A stretch of DNA of 64,000 nucleotides from a virus (lineage: Duplodnaviria > Heunggongvirae > Uroviricota > Caudoviricetes), in IMG/VR virus record IMGVR_UViG_2859805564_000001. One strand, 5' to 3'. Numbering within the stretch: the first letter of the stretch is position 1; every line of letters starts with the position of its first letter. Positions 9,001 through 15,000 of this stretch are shown in pieces. The position numbers were made by a program.

Positions 9001-12000
9001 ATCTTTTGCGGTGTACGAAATATCATCCATTGAGAATGCGCCAGCTTGTACGCAGGAGAGTAACGGATATTCGTAAGCGGGGACACGAGTTAATGGCTCT
9101 TCAATTGCGAGCGCCATTTCTGCAATAGATTTTGCCAGGCTGGGACTGAAATCTCCGACCTTTACATTCAGTATCTTAGCAAGCTGTGCTGCGTGGCTGG
9201 CATTTATGGCGTTGATGCCAGCCATTAGCTGATTAACAGCGCTTTGGGTAACACCTAATTCATAGGCTAATGATTCCTGCGACAGGCCTAACTCTTTCTT
9301 TTTAGCGTTAAAAATACTTTTCAGACGCTTGGCGTCTTCCAGTTGCTCAGGGGTTAACGGTTTCTTTTTCATGTTCATACCATATCACCTTTGGTTATAT
9401 GTAATGAAATATCTGCGGTGTTGACATTTTAATAACTGTGCGTAATGATATGGGCATTTTGAAGGAGTCAGTTATGGCGATGAAAAAAGAGACCCTGGCT
9501 GATTACGTATACAGGTTCGGCCAAAAGAAAGCCGCTAAGGACTTTGGCGTGGCGCAGAGTGCAATCAGTAAAGCGCTTCTCGTCGGACGAGAAATATACG
9601 TCAAAACCTTTGATGACGGCACAGTTGAGGCGGAAGAGGTTCGTCCGTTCCCTGCGTTCGTAAGAGGCGATGATTAATCCTGGACACACAGCCCATCGGA
9701 GGTGTGAGTGAACAGGCAAATCAAAACGGTTATGCCCGAGCAGTACTGTGATGCTGATCGGGACTGGATACAGGAGCAATTGTTACAGCTAGACCCGACC
9801 ACCCGGGTAAAAATTGCAGCAGAGTACGCGAGAGTGTACCAGGAAGAGTGGGACAAGGAGCCTGTATCGTTCAGGAAGGGCAACAGGGCAAGACGGAGCG
9901 CCAACACCCGGTTACGGGTGTATGTCCAGAAGTACGCGAGAGCCAGCCGTGGCTGGATGCTTTCGCCAGTAGCGGTACGGAAGTTTCCCCCGACACCATG
10001 ATGGCGGTTAGTTGCGCTAGAAATAATTTCACATGCAACTAATTTCCTGAAAGGAAGCGAGGAGGGGGTAAGGGGGTGGAGTCGTTGGTAAGGCCTGTAT
10101 CCCTTGGCCTAGGCCAGAAGGCAGGTACATAGGTTAGGTAGATCACTGTATAAGCGCGCGATAGTTTCTGGTGAAATAATTATCGAGCTAACTATTGAGT
10201 GATAAACTATGTCAGCAGCAACCAAATCGGCACTGATCCGTACACTGAGCACTGTACCACTGAGAACAGAGGAGCGTTACAGCTTTCTGGCTGATGTCGT
10301 AACGATCCTTGAGTCACAGGGGATGCATGTGGCAAGCAATGTCACAGTAAGAATCGATGGCAGAAATTTCCGTGTTGATATTCTCGCAACAGCAAAAACT
10401 GGTGGGAGTGTGGCTATCGAGATCGATCGTAGCTCTCCGCGACCCCGCTCAGTCATGAAATTGCGTGAATTGGCACGTCGTGGCACTGAAGGCTTTGTGT
10501 TGCTTCGAATGCCAAAGAAACTGACCAGTTATAGCGATGCTGGGATCGATATCATCCCGGCGAATGGCAAGGGGGCGTCATGCTGAAAATCACCCCAAAC
10601 TTTGCTCAGGAGCGCGGTTTAAACCAGCTGCGGCACCAGTGGAAACTGCATCGCACGTACCTGATGTATGCACCCACTGGCTCTGGCAAAACTGGTCTTG
10701 CAGCATTCGTCACTGCCGGAATGGTTGAACGTGGTATGCGGGTGATGTTTGTCTGTCCGTACACCATCCTGCTGAACCAGACAGCGGAACGTTTCACCGA
10801 ATACGGTTTGCCGTGGGAAGAAATCAGTTTTGTATGGCGTGATCACCCTAACTATGACCCGTCACGACTGATTCAGATTGCCAGTGCCGACACGCTGATC
10901 CGTCGTGAGTTTCCTGACAACATCGATCTGCTGATCATCGATGAAGCACACATGAAGCGTCGTGCGTTACTTGAGGTTATCCGGGACAGAGACATCAGGG
11001 TTCTTGGACTTTCCGGCACCCCGTTCGCAGCCTGGATGGGGAAGTACTACGAATGCCTGATCAAGCCTACAACGATTCGTGAACTTATTCAGCGTGGTGA
11101 TCTGAGCGATTACGAGTTTTTTGCCCCCTCAATGCCTGATCTGGCTGGCGTAAAAACCAGTAACACCGTATTTGGACGGGATTACAACGAGGAGCAGCTC
11201 GCATCCATCATGGGGAGTTCGGATCTGGTTGGCGATATCGTTCGCAACTGGCTTGAGAATGGCGAGGATTTGCCGACGATCTGCTTTTGCGTGAATGTTG
11301 CGCATGCGAATTTTGTTACCCGTGAGTTTTTACAGGCCGGTATTGGCGCAGAGGTGATGACGGCAGATACCCTCCATGATGAACGACAGGACATCATTCG
11401 CCGTTTTGAAGAGGGCGCGACCAAAATAATTGTCAACGTTGGTGTACTGGTTGCGGGATTTGACAGCGATGTTCGCTGCCTGATCTACGCCCGTCCGACA
11501 AAATCAGAAATCCGTTGGTTGCAGTGCATAGGTAGAGCGTTACGTACAGCCCCAGGTAAAAAACGTGCGTTGATTTTCGACCATTCTGGTACGGTTCATC
11601 GGCTGGGCTTCCCCGAGGATATCGAGTATGACGAACTGCCGGGTAAAAATGACGGAATGAAAGCGTCTGCTGGCGGTGGCGAGGTTAAGGCTGAGAAACT
11701 TCCCAGAGAATGCCCCAAATGCCACTTCATGAAGCCTGCTGGTGTACACATGTGTCCCAAATGTGGGTTTCGTCCTCTTGGTGGCGATGATGTGGCAACA
11801 GACCGCGATCGAAAACTCTCTCGCGTAAACAAAGGGAAACGCGAATACAGTCGCGAGGAAAAGCAGCGTTGGTGGAGTGAGATCAAGGGGTATCAGAATT
11901 ACCGCAACGCGACGGGTAAACCCCTGAGTGACGGATGGTGCGCTCATACCTACAAGGAGAAGTTCGGTGTGTGGCCTAAAGGCTTCAGTAATGCGCCGCT

Positions 12001-15000
12001 GCAAACCTCAGTTGAAGTGTACAACTTCATCAAGTCAAAGACCATTGCCTATGCCAAAGGGCGCAAGAAAGCCATGACAGGAGGCCAGCATGCAGACTAA
12101 GAAGGCAGCGGCCGGGCATTGGGGGCGAATTTTTGAATATTACGGCATGCCTCCTGTTACTGGCTTGAAACATTATAGCGGCCCCTGCCCGATATGTGGT
12201 GCCAGAGGTAAATTTCGCTGTGATGATAAGGATGGTTCCGGTTCATGGATTTGTGTCTGTGGTCACGGGGACGGGATGAATCTGTTGCAACTTGCCACGG
12301 GTAAGCCCTGGGTGACGTTGTGTGATGAAATCGATCGGCTGATCGGAAATACCTGGAAGAGGGAGAAAGTCAGCCAGCCTGTAACAGAGATAAGCAGAAA
12401 GCGGGAGCTGGTCATGGATAAGTTTGCCGGACTCCCGTGTCTGCGGGGCACAACAGGTGAGGCGTACCTGCAGGGGAGGGGAATACTCCAGTTACCGACC
12501 GAATCCGTGCGTTTTTGTGACCGTCAGATCGCCAGCGGGCGCGAATATCAGGCAATTTACGCCATTGCAACAGATGACAGAGGTTCTCTTTGCTATCTGC
12601 ATCGTACGTTGCTGGATGGTGATCGCAAGGCGAATGTAGAGGCGGCTAAAAAAATGACCGCGCTACAGGAGTTGCCTGGTTTGCAGCATGCCAAATCGGT
12701 GGCAATACGCCTGTATCCGGTGTCGTCCACTCTGGGGATAGCCGAGGGTATCGAAACTGCGCTTTCATGCCGTCAAATCTTCCGCTGCAATGTGTGGTCA
12801 ACAATGAACTCCGGTTTTATGGAGAAGTTTATTGCGCCACCAGGCGTTAATCACCTGATTATCTTTGCAGACAATGATGAGCACGGCGCAGGTCTGGCGG
12901 CTGCCTTTAAATGTGGGCATAAGAATCTCATGAGTCGTAATGACGTTGAGAAGGTCAGCATTCGCTGGCCTGACTTGCCGGATTTTAACGACATGCTCAT
13001 TCAGGGGTGTGAAGCCCGTGAACATGTGTTGACGCGCAAATTCAAAGCGGAGGCTGCCTGATGGAAATAGAGATGATCAAGGCGGCTAATGGCGTATTTG
13101 TACCGGCGTATGAGCGCGATTTACCCCGACTGGCAAAATTTAAAAACGGTGAGCTGTATACACTGGAAGCAAAACTTACCCGTAACCCATCTTTTCACCG
13201 GAAGATGTTCGCTTTTCTTAATTTCTGCTTTCAGTACTGGTGCGCTGAACATGCTGGATACGAATTCTCTGATGAAGCGACGCAGTTTGATGAGTTTCGT
13301 AAAAATCTGACAATTCTTGCCGGGTTCTATGATGTGGTCACAACCATAAGAGGCGAGGTGAGATATCGGGCAAAAAGCCTGAGTTACGCGAATATGGATC
13401 AGGATGAGTTTGAACGTTGCTACAACGCAATGATTAATGCCGCGTTAAAACATGTGTTCGGGCGCTCAAACAATCCTGAACTGAATAACCGCCTGCTGTC
13501 GTTTTTCTGAGGTGATGATGAAGCAACGTAAACCAAAAAAATGCAAAGTGTGCGGCTCCTCGTTTGTGCCGTTCCGCTCATATCAGAAAGTTTGCTGTGG
13601 TCAGTGCGCACTGGAACTGGTCAGAAAAGAAAAGGCGATAGCTTCAGCAAAAGAGCAGGCAGACAAGCTGAAAGCGCGCAGGAGGGACTTACAGCCCCGC
13701 AGTTACTGGATTAAGCAGGCACAACAGGCTGTGAATGCTTATATCAGGGAGCGGGACCGTCATTTGCCGTGTGTTTCATGCGGGACGTTCGATTCAGCCC
13801 AGTGGGATGCAGGCCATTACCGTACAACAGCTGCGGCACCTCAGCTCAGATTTGATGAACGCAATATCCATAAGCAATGCGTGGTGTGTAACCAGTACAA
13901 AAGCGGAAATCTCGTTCCGTATCGTGTCGAACTGATTAACCGCATCGGGCAGGAAGCAGTAGACGAAATCGAATCAAACCATAGTCGCCACCGCTGGACT
14001 GTCGAAGAGTGCAAGGCGATCAAGGCAGAGTATCAACAGAAACTTAAAGACCTGCGAAACAGCAGAAGTGAGGCCGCATGACGTTCACCGTAAAAACCAT
14101 TCCTGACATGCTTGTTGAGGCATATGGAAATCAGACCGAAGTGGCCCGAATACTGAACTGCAATCGTGCCACAGTCAGAAAATACATTGGCGATAAAGAA
14201 GGGAAAAGACACGCTATCGTCAACGGTGTTCTTATGGTTCACCGCGGATGGGGTAAAGATACTGATGCGTGATATCCGGCAGGTTCTTGAGCGCTGGGGG
14301 GCATGGGCGGCAAATAACCATGAGGATGTTACATGGTCGCCCATTGCTGCCGGATTTAAGAGGCTGATCCCCGAAAAAGTAAAATCACGTCCACAGTGTT
14401 GTGACGATGACGCGATGATTATATGCGGGTGTATGGCTCGCCTTAACAGGAACAACAGCGATCTGCATGACTTGCTGGTTGATTATTACGTGTTGGGGGA
14501 GACGTTCATGGCGCTGGCACGGAAACATGGGTGCTCTGACACCTGTATAGGTAAACGCCTTCACAAAGCGGAGGGGATTGTTGAAGGCATGCTGATGATG
14601 CTGGGAGTGAGGCTTGAGATGGATCGGTATGTTGAGCGTGAATTGCCGGGAGGGAGAACCTCTGTATTTTATCAGCGAAAAAATAGTTTACGATCGTAAA
14701 AATCTGCATATCATGATAAGAGTGGTTACATTGCCACGCTGCTTAACCCGCCGATGCGCGGGTTTTTTTGTACCCAGAATCCTGTGAGCTATACGGAAAG
14801 TACACAGAAAGGAAGGTGCGACCACAATTAATAACAAAATCTTAAAAATCGCACATGGCACTATTAGTTTTCTAAATATTGTGTATTTTTTGTATTGCAG
14901 GATGACCCTGTAACGAAGTTTGCGTAACAGCATTTTGCTCTACGAGTTTGCCAGCCTCCCCCAGTGGCTGGCTTTTTTATGTCCGTAACATCCTGTGTAT

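Follow-up and report, generated by a model that had tools for sequence, protein, structure and literature searches.

We analysed a 64,000-nt stretch of a Caudoviricetes genome (IMG/VR record IMGVR_UViG_2859805564_000001; hereafter the window), and in particular the replication region that follows its cro gene. This region holds two small open reading frames (ORFs), whose products of 97 and 125 amino acids (aa) we call p97 and p125, followed by a helicase gene and a primase gene, with a non-coding gap between the two small ORFs. The window is a Shiga toxin (Stx) prophage, with stx1A (15197-16153) and stx1B (16163-16432) both just 3' of Q (14166-14699). DNA identity and gene content identify this region as the Eru1 replication unit, carried here by a Stx1-converting prophage (PA2 / Ss-VASD / TL-2011c type; genus Oslovirus). 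The genes of the locus are:

8665-9378, minus strand: CI-type repressor (HTH_3 and Peptidase_S24), the 'Eru1r' of the literature
9421-9449, plus strand: pR-like sigma-70 promoter, TTGACA-17-AATGAT, upstream of the cro/replication operon (by consensus match alone, 10/12)
9438-9677, plus strand: cro (Pfam Cro, E 4.8e-34), with the start at ATG 9474 in annotated records
9708-10001, plus strand: p97, ORF for a basic protein with three helices (orphan family phrog_852), at the left end of the replication module
10209-10586, plus strand: p125, predicted minimal PD-(D/E)XK nuclease-fold protein, whose stop overlaps the helicase start (ATGCTGA)
10580-12100, plus strand: Eru1A, superfamily 2 (SF2) DEAH helicase (ResIII/DEAD/Helicase_C) with a C-terminal zinc ribbon
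12090-13061, plus strand: Eru1B, predicted primase with Zn-ribbon (Zn_Ribbon_Prim), DUF7146 and Toprim_3, of the P4 alpha primase-domain type
13061-13510, plus strand: 'Eru1C', DUF1367, NinB/Orf recombination-mediator family (phrog_319), a nin-region gene

The ORFs for cro, the 97-aa protein, the 125-aa protein, the helicase and the primase all lie where the original prediction had placed them, and its central claim, a helicase-primase module with two small genes in the place of lambda's cII, O and P, is borne out by Pfam domains and motifs. Pfam also finds no CII, O or P homologue after cro, as had been stated, and none of the nine proteins from cI to Q matches O, P, N, CII or CIII. From the pR-like promoter, the predicted rightward operon reads cro, p97, the non-coding element, p125, helicase and primase, then ninB, ninG and Q, and a promoter and terminator scan found no convincing terminator between that promoter and Q. 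At the junctions of p125, helicase, primase and the next gene the reading frames overlap (ATGCTGA, an 11-nt overlap, and ATGA), as expected of a translationally coupled operon.

Identity with Eru1

The segment 9400-13100 matched 98 phage records over at least 80% of its length, at 97.4-100% identity, and the matching records belong to the Sepvirinae, genus Oslovirus. Identity is 100% in Shigella phage Ss-VASD and several Stx2a phages, 99.4-99.5% in PA2, VT2phi_272 and ArgO145, and 97.4% in P13374 (O104:H4, Germany 2011) and in TL-2011c (O103:H25, Norway 2006; JQ011318, 97.4% over 3,701 bp). The 900 bp made up of p97, the gap and p125 were present in 147 of 5,426 complete E. coli genomes, on the chromosome every time. 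The name Eru1, for "EHEC phage replication unit" (EHEC, enterohaemorrhagic E. coli), was given to exactly such an arrangement by Llarena et al. 2021 (PMC8044961), with eru1A a 506-aa SF2 DEAH helicase, eru1B a 323-aa Toprim protein and eru1C a 149-aa DUF1367 protein. The window has the same parts: a DEAH helicase of 506 aa downstream of cI/cro (10580-12100), a Toprim_3 protein of 323 aa (12090-13061) and a DUF1367 protein of 149 aa (13061-13510). Its DNA is the same (97.4-100% identity) as that of the Eru1 phages TL-2011c, P13374, PA2 and Ss-VASD, with which it shares the cI/cro type and the lack of O, P, N, CII and CIII; it carries stx1, whereas Eru1 phages more usually carry stx2a.

Eru1 phages were described as having no N, CII or CIII homologues, and their lysogens as about eight logs less stable than those of the lambdoid phage 933W; function was assigned in that work from position and domains, without experiment (PMC8044961). 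The absence of cII, cIII and N from such phages has been on record since 2012. The Phi-191 paper of 2014 noted it, citing the earlier P13374 report, and inferred that lysogeny must be entered under the control of some other mechanism, and the same absence was recorded for PA2-type phages in 2015. The module is therefore not new, as its replication genes match the described Eru1 (PMC8044961), a match that the original prediction had itself listed among the results that would tell against its novelty. The question of how lysogeny is established without CII is a real one but had already been stated in the literature; on both points the original prediction is a rediscovery. The 97-aa ORF, the 125-aa ORF and an origin are discussed neither in the 2021 paper nor in the later Eru paper on Stx phages by Fagerlund et al. 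2022 (PMC8044961, PMC8951638), and the phrase "origin of replication" occurs in neither. What the present analysis adds is the inclusion of p97 and a conserved non-coding element in the core, the exclusion of the NinB protein ('Eru1C'), the fold of p125 and the variable slot in which it lies.

Inheritance of p97 with the helicase and the primase

The p97 gene begins with GTG behind a Shine-Dalgarno sequence GGAGG (9698-9702) and encodes a protein with an isoelectric point of 10.1. Its family, phrog_852 (function unknown), comprises 43 clusters in enterobacterial genomes and has 18 invariant residues, concentrated in a basic, arginine-rich helix (N59, R62, A65-R70). The AlphaFold model (mean predicted local distance difference test score 76) is a hairpin of three helices, without a helix-turn-helix (HTH). 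The ORF is left unannotated in the records of Ss-VASD (RefSeq NC_028685), TL-2011c (JQ011318) and phi191 (NC_028660).

The linkage of p97 was followed at about 35 loci from other species, some 31 of them with downstream sequence, from genera that include Serratia, Yersinia, Kosakonia, Citrobacter, Enterobacter, Atlantibacter, Pectobacterium, Pantoea, Erwinia and Gilliamella. At all of the roughly 31 loci bar one, a p97 homologue (42-58% identity) is followed by the helicase (62-69%) and the primase (50-59%), while CI and Cro at the same loci are of differing Pfam types, with identities from undetectable up to 45-59%. The exception, L014, was rejected as a case of p97 without helicase; it is a rearranged remnant, with tail-fibre fragments and an invertase immediately after p97. 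Salmonella phage Fels-1 has a gene order identical to that of the module. In Vibrio phage 1.233.B, p97, helicase (59%) and primase (52%) are again together, and the annotation shows neither cI nor cro beside p97; in Vibrio phages of the phiHSIC type p97 lies after a larger helicase of the same ResIII/Helicase_C/zinc-ribbon design. Judged by this linkage, p97 is part of the replication module, conserved there and inherited along with helicase and primase whatever the cI/cro type.

Both enzymes carry the expected signatures. Eru1A has SF2 motifs I, II, III and VI (APTGSGKT31-38, DEAH121-124, SGTP145-148, QCIGRALR315-322) and two RecA-like domains, with a zinc ribbon of the form CxxC-N10-CxxC at residues 378-395; it is not a DnaB-like or superfamily 3 (SF3) replicative helicase. 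Eru1B joins an N-terminal zinc ribbon (PF08273, E 9e-15) to a Toprim domain (Toprim_3, E 5e-11) that has the Toprim glutamate and DxD in EGIETA219-224 and DNDE261-264, and is predicted to be a primase of the DnaG/P4-alpha Toprim type, although no close solved relative was found. 'Eru1C' is found next to these two enzyme genes solely in the E. coli/Salmonella lineage and is absent from that place in almost all other species; because its co-inheritance is limited in this way, it probably belongs to the nin region and stands outside the replication unit proper.

A conserved non-coding element between p97 and p125

The gap between p97 and p125 is 207 bp long (10002-10208), and all enterobacterial loci have 180-440 bp of non-coding DNA after p97. 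Its features in the window are:

10008-10042, no strand: left AT-rich dyad TTAGTTGCGCTAGAAAT / ATTTCACATGCAACTAA, lineage-specific
10053-10081, plus strand: G-rich tract GGAAGCGAGGAGGGGGTAAGGGGGTGGAG, non-template strand with respect to transcription from pR, conserved across genera
10105-10116, no strand: 12-bp palindrome TGGCCTAGGCCA, at chance level and not conserved
10128-10176, plus strand: most conserved non-coding block, including CATAGGTTAGGTAGATC (10128-10144) with a GATC, 88-89% identical across genera
10162-10194, no strand: right AT-rich repeat/dyad TAGTTTCTGGTGAAATAATT...AACTA, paired with the left element

Composition changes along the gap from AT-rich (10020-10059) to G-rich and back to AT-rich (10160-10199), and the G-richness noted by the original prediction is real: the 35-mer at 10053, with 21 G of 35, is the most G-rich of the 64 kb on either strand and the sole one with at least 21 G. 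The alignment of relatives reveals a common layout, namely a left dyad or repeat, a purine/G-rich tract (in most relatives GGGGGGTAAGGGGGG), a short segment (CCTTTTCCAACAG in relatives), the CATAGGTTARGTAGATC motif, an A-rich run and a right dyad or repeat. The conserved block reaches about 10176 in the Salmonella relatives, and the CATAGGTTAGGTAGATC motif occurs once in the window. Mean pairwise identities, with helicase third-codon positions as a proxy for neutral change, were:

CATAGGTTAGGTAGATC motif: 0.88 among all, 0.89 for the window against the others
G-tract: 0.72 among all, 0.61 for the window against the others
Helicase third-codon positions: 0.50 among all, 0.41 for the window against the others
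Window palindrome region: 0.72 among all, 0.42 for the window against the others
Window outer flanks: 0.49-0.55 among all, 0.32-0.35 for the window against the others

For the window, the CATAGGTTAGGTAGATC motif and the G-tract thus stand well above the neutral level, at which the palindrome region and the outer flanks lie. The original prediction had singled out the palindrome and suggested that the gap holds an origin or a promoter. The conserved G-tract and the adjacent motif favour the first of these, whereas no promoter (or terminator) was predicted in the gap and the palindrome has to be given up: perfect 12-bp palindromes number 16 in the window against 15.6 expected, and in all relatives TGGCCTAGGCCA is replaced by a CCTTTTCCA-type sequence, the closest Salmonella relatives included (GCTTTTCCAACAG there).

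The flanking repeats behave differently from the core. The first 20 nt of the left dyad recur as a direct repeat at 10162-10181 (75% identical), and its arms GAAATA...TATTTC are kept in the Salmonella relatives. Between lineages the repeats change, left and right in step: GTACTAG...TAGTAC is found at many loci, GGATGGCTAA in Atlantibacter and the GAAATAAT type in the window and Salmonella. Such paired change is as expected of binding sites for a co-evolving protein of the module. A test of which protein tracks the class of the flanking repeats weakly favoured p97, and is confounded by the faster evolution of p97.

Relatives also carry one to three hairpins with a TTRAAGGT loop after the p97 stop (for example L016 6290-6340, L012, L005, L021, and L037 5298-5325), which the window lacks. 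The stems of these hairpins differ in sequence and keep their pairing, with compensatory changes in three of four pairs. In the consensus RNA structure computed from the gap alignment, only two features have support, a hairpin that is missing from the window and a non-covarying pairing between the G-tract and CCTTTTCC.

A model for replication initiation

From linkage and conservation we infer that p97, the element, the helicase and the primase would form a functional unit in which the element acts in cis. In the model we favour, p97, the non-coding element, the SF2 zinc-ribbon helicase and the Zn-ribbon/Toprim primase form the core of the module, in one pR operon after cro, with the element serving as origin or initiation site; we give this reading a probability of roughly 70%. 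According to this model, once CI repression is lifted, transcription from pR would produce p97, helicase and primase and would at the same time cross the element. The element would be an origin or a cis-acting initiation site in which a universal core (the G-tract and CATAGGTTARGTAGATC) lies between lineage-specific AT-rich repeats, and p97 would be the best candidate for recognising these repeats and recruiting the helicase. The helicase would then open the DNA and the primase lay the first primer, after which the host polymerase would take over. With the G-rich strand as the non-template strand, R-loop formation during transcription would be favoured and could assist the opening. p125 would be an accessory PD-(D/E)XK nuclease, placed in a slot that has repeatedly hosted free-standing nucleases.

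Several observations weigh against this model. We infer the mechanism as a whole from sequence, and function in the published Eru work was likewise assigned from position and domains. No iteron array (at least three direct repeats) is present in the gap, where the search for an origin by repeats yielded the single 20-nt repeat pair around the core; nor does the gap hold a DnaA box, window-wide counts of which are at chance. The window's G-tract is too short to match the canonical G-quadruplex (G4) pattern, which the longer tracts of most relatives would match, and the RNA fold of the gap is ordinary (z -1.0, single-sequence). For p97, Pfam, NCBIfam, lenient scans of 31 members and fold searches gave no informative sequence or structural relative. 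The nearest relative of Eru1A is a repair helicase (RadD) and no known replicative helicase. Finally, Vibrio phage 1.233.B keeps p97, helicase and primase around a different gap without the G-tract element, and since that gap also holds a gene for an HTH_36/RepL-like protein, p97 need not be the origin binder.

The interval between p97 and helicase in 1.233.B (L038 5253-5604) contains a terminator, three ACGACAGA(A/G)(C/G)(C/T)TGTC repeats (ACGACAGAACCTGTCGC repeats) and a TTGACA promoter-like site, besides the HTH_36/RepL-like gene of 133 aa, and so looks like an alternative, iteron-type solution within the same module. This shows that a module can exchange its cis element, and the binder of that element, without losing p97, helicase and primase. 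No relative of known function was detected for p97, and its role therefore rests on linkage; from this linkage and its charge we propose that it is an origin- or helicase-associated accessory factor. The gap element, for its part, is the best candidate for the origin rather than an established one.

One may go further and speculate that the four-part core is a distinct initiation system, widespread in temperate phages of enterobacteria and Vibrio, in which p97, with a new fold, would mark an origin free of iterons and DnaA boxes that pR transcription opens through an R-loop for a non-hexameric helicase and a dedicated primase. Coupling to pR without CII or N checkpoints could then underlie the unusually unstable lysogeny and high toxin output reported for Eru1 Stx phages. 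This wider view is tentative, and we hold it to be possible but rather doubtful. If the model favoured above is true, replication and Q expression would follow pR activity directly, with no CII or N checkpoint; such coupling would be consistent with the reported instability of Eru1 lysogens, though this is no evidence for it.

Alternative roles for the element and for p125

An unlikely alternative, and the one to be taken most seriously, is that the conserved element is no origin and controls the helicase-primase genes transcriptionally or post-transcriptionally, by pausing, processing or attenuation or as a regulatory site for p97. It lies inside the pR operon between two coding regions, and lacks classical iterons and DnaA boxes; the co-varying TTRAAGGT stem-loops after p97 in relatives look like RNA features, an intrinsic terminator follows p97 in Vibrio phages, and the arginine-rich helix of p97 would suit such a role. 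Against this, the window's gap has no predicted promoter or terminator and no Rfam family, its RNA fold energy is ordinary, the TTRAAGGT hairpins are missing from the window copy, and covariation supports nothing in the conserved core. Moreover, the module needs an origin somewhere, and the gap element is its only conserved non-coding DNA. The minus-strand DNA of the gap gave a fold with z -2.6, a single-sequence value that is not decisive, and operator-like k-mers for CI/Cro taken from 9379-9473 do not recur in the gap.

p125 has the features of a small nuclease, in keeping with the loosely restriction-endonuclease-like character first noted for it. Its core fold, alpha-beta-beta-beta-alpha-beta, is that of PD-(D/E)XK enzymes. 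An exhaustive HMMER search found 28 relatives, mostly of 104-145 aa. The family alignment conserves G54, D57, E71-x-D73, P77-R78, S81 and K84; across 23 homologues E71, D73 and K84 are invariant and D57 nearly so. The acidic pattern D...E-x-D is BamHI-like and differs from the canonical (D/E)xK. The family's Pfam matches are all sub-threshold and all to PD-(D/E)XK families (MTES_1575 in 11 of 23, Mrr_cat in 4 of 23), with none reaching threshold in Pfam and no match in NCBIfam. The nearest known systems are the minimal PD-(D/E)XK nucleases (AF1548, BamHI/OkrAI, the NucS C-domain, Hjc) and free-standing phage homing endonucleases; p125 differs from them in having no Pfam family at threshold and no partner methylase, and its homing is putative.

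The slot that p125 occupies, between the non-coding element and the helicase, is variable. About half of 32 intervals have no ORF of at least 60 aa there; some loci have unrelated ORFs of 91-201 aa, and Yersinia loci an HNH/NUMOD4 homing endonuclease. Homologues of p125 were found in L020, L030, L034, L035, Fels-1 and three Salmonella loci; besides Fels-1 and Salmonella, loci of Buttiauxella, Yersinia and Gilliamella have one in the slot. In the closest relatives outside E. coli, from Salmonella, p97 (76-80%), helicase (80%) and primase (70%) are well conserved while the slot ORF is just 36-39% identical to p125. Sporadic presence at a fixed site and a history discordant with the flanking genes are what a free-standing homing endonuclease would display. 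In Vibrio phage 1.191.O an HNH endonuclease gene lies directly upstream of the helicase (L040 1938-2618), and in phiHSIC the SF2 helicase beside the p97 homologue is split by an intein with Hint and LAGLIDADG domains (L039 1809-4670); these two cases indicate that selfish nucleases target the helicase locus repeatedly. Together, the variable slot, the discordant divergence and the HNH genes suggest a hotspot for selfish or accessory nucleases. The simplest reading is that p125 is such a nuclease cassette and not a core replication factor, and it is probably dispensable for replication.

That p125 might instead be an essential initiator nuclease, nicking or cutting at the adjacent element to start replication, would agree with its fold and conserved acidic residues, with its place between the element and a translationally coupled helicase, and with its recurrence in the same slot from Salmonella to Gilliamella. 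We consider this improbable, as about half of the modules do without any ORF in the slot, which elsewhere is taken up by unrelated ORFs or by an HNH homing endonuclease, as p125 diverges out of step with its neighbours, and as an HNH gene stands upstream of the helicase in a Vibrio phage too.

Comparison with known replication systems

The alpha protein of P4 is the closest parallel for Eru1B: its primase part shares the Zn-ribbon and Toprim architecture, and the Fels-1 homologue is annotated by similarity to the P4 primase. In P4, priming and unwinding are phage-encoded rather than borrowed from DnaB and DnaG, and the same would hold for Eru1. The P4 protein fuses primase, SF3 helicase and origin-binding domain, and its origin (ori/crr) is an array of octamer iterons, whereas in Eru1 the helicase is a separate SF2 enzyme, no origin-binding domain is identifiable and there is no iteron array. 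In lambda, cII, O, P and ori occupy the same position as Eru1, after cro in the pR operon and before the nin genes and Q, yet neither in sequence nor in domains does Eru1 resemble O, P or CII. Lambda recruits the host DnaB through P, whereas Eru1 encodes its own helicase and primase. The lambda origin depends on transcription through or near the origin.

For Eru1A, the best match among solved structures and among curated (NCBIfam) models is the repair helicase RadD (YejH), with XPB, Hef and UvsW farther away. RadD, like Eru1A, has an SF2 core followed by a zinc-binding motif; unlike Eru1A, it is an accessory factor of repair and recombination that lies outside any replication module, and with 87.6 bits against a cut-off of 720 (NF053632) Eru1A is no RadD orthologue. 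Its likeness to RadD and to restriction-type SF2 ATPases, and the NinB/Orf recombination mediator encoded downstream, could be read to mean that the helicase-primase pair serves recombination, repair or defence evasion while host functions replicate the phage from another origin. This we regard as very improbable: the 25.7 kb around the module of an identical phage have no other annotated initiator, helicase loader or DnaB-like gene, the primase has the full Zn-ribbon/Toprim architecture, the pair sits in the replication slot of dozens of temperate phages, and in one family member there is an intein, an element typically found in essential replication genes.

The original prediction had further suggested that the 97-aa protein might act like CII. 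p97 had no Pfam match to Phage_CII (PF05269) or Phage_CP76 (PF06892) at E<=0.01, and the 31 family members had none even at E<=1; hhalign against lambda CII gave a probability of 0.2%. Thus an alignment of the 97-aa protein with the CII family, which the prediction had itself named as a result that would tell against it, did not appear. In addition, at least four relatives have true CII-family genes between cro and p97: a Phage_CP76 gene in Serratia phage OS31 (33.8 bits), Chania (33.2) and Pectobacterium (40.5; cut-off 26), and a Phage_CII gene of the lambda type at a locus from Pantoea (33.4 bits; cut-off 21.3). Being linked to helicase and primase and coexisting with true CII genes, p97 belongs to the module and does not substitute for CII; the phage has no CII gene, and p97 is no replacement for it. 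The label 'CII transcriptional activator' given to p97 in one automated annotation (PV189405) is unsupported and contradicted by the evidence here. That p97 is nonetheless a functional analogue of CII, activating cI or int transcription for lysogeny, as its small size, its basic character, its place directly after cro (that of cII in lambda) and this label might suggest, is already largely refuted and hardly credible, given the lack of CII-family matches or HTH relatives, the three-helix model, the inheritance with helicase and primase and not with the cI/cro immunity region, its presence in a Vibrio phage with no cI or cro annotated alongside, and its coexistence with real CII genes.

The most severe EHEC outbreaks (O104:H4 in 2011, O103:H25 in 2006) owed their toxin genes to Eru1 phages. 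Toxin output tracks phage replication, and a 200-bp origin candidate makes that replication directly testable. The search for origin and initiator in Eru1 phages narrows to a 200-bp element and one small protein. The CII idea for p97 is rejected, and with it the wrong CII label of one database record; the palindrome is dismissed.

Neighbouring genes and other observations

An Rfam scan of 8500-15300 returned nothing relevant, and the cumulative GC skew of the whole window tracks transcription direction, without an origin signal. The start of cro is ambiguous, as the longest ORF begins at GTG 9438 (79 aa) and the annotated one at ATG 9474 (67 aa). The Pfam Cro match begins at residue 15 of the longest ORF. 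A start at ATG 9474 leaves a cI-cro intergenic region of 95 bp. The only operator candidates between cI and cro are two: an inverted repeat, CCATATCA/TGATATGG, and a repeat of GTAATGAWAT at 9401 and 9442.

Next to cI, downstream and encoded by the same strand, are genes for a restriction endonuclease of the BsuBI/PstI type (6151-7104) and a methylase of the Eco57I type (7101-8570, minus strand). Given that they share a strand with cI, both may be expressed in lysogens; a restriction endonuclease/methylase pair beside cI was reported earlier for PA2-type phages (PMC4587872). On the other side of the module, stx1A starts about 500 bp after Q (14700-15197 between them). The window has no tRNA gene anywhere, and Stx2a phages with the same module have three between Q and stx. 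Finally, the segment 32000-34000 has an unusually high GC content (0.60) with strong GC and AT skew, and the only two canonical G4 motifs of the window are at 33248 and 33823.

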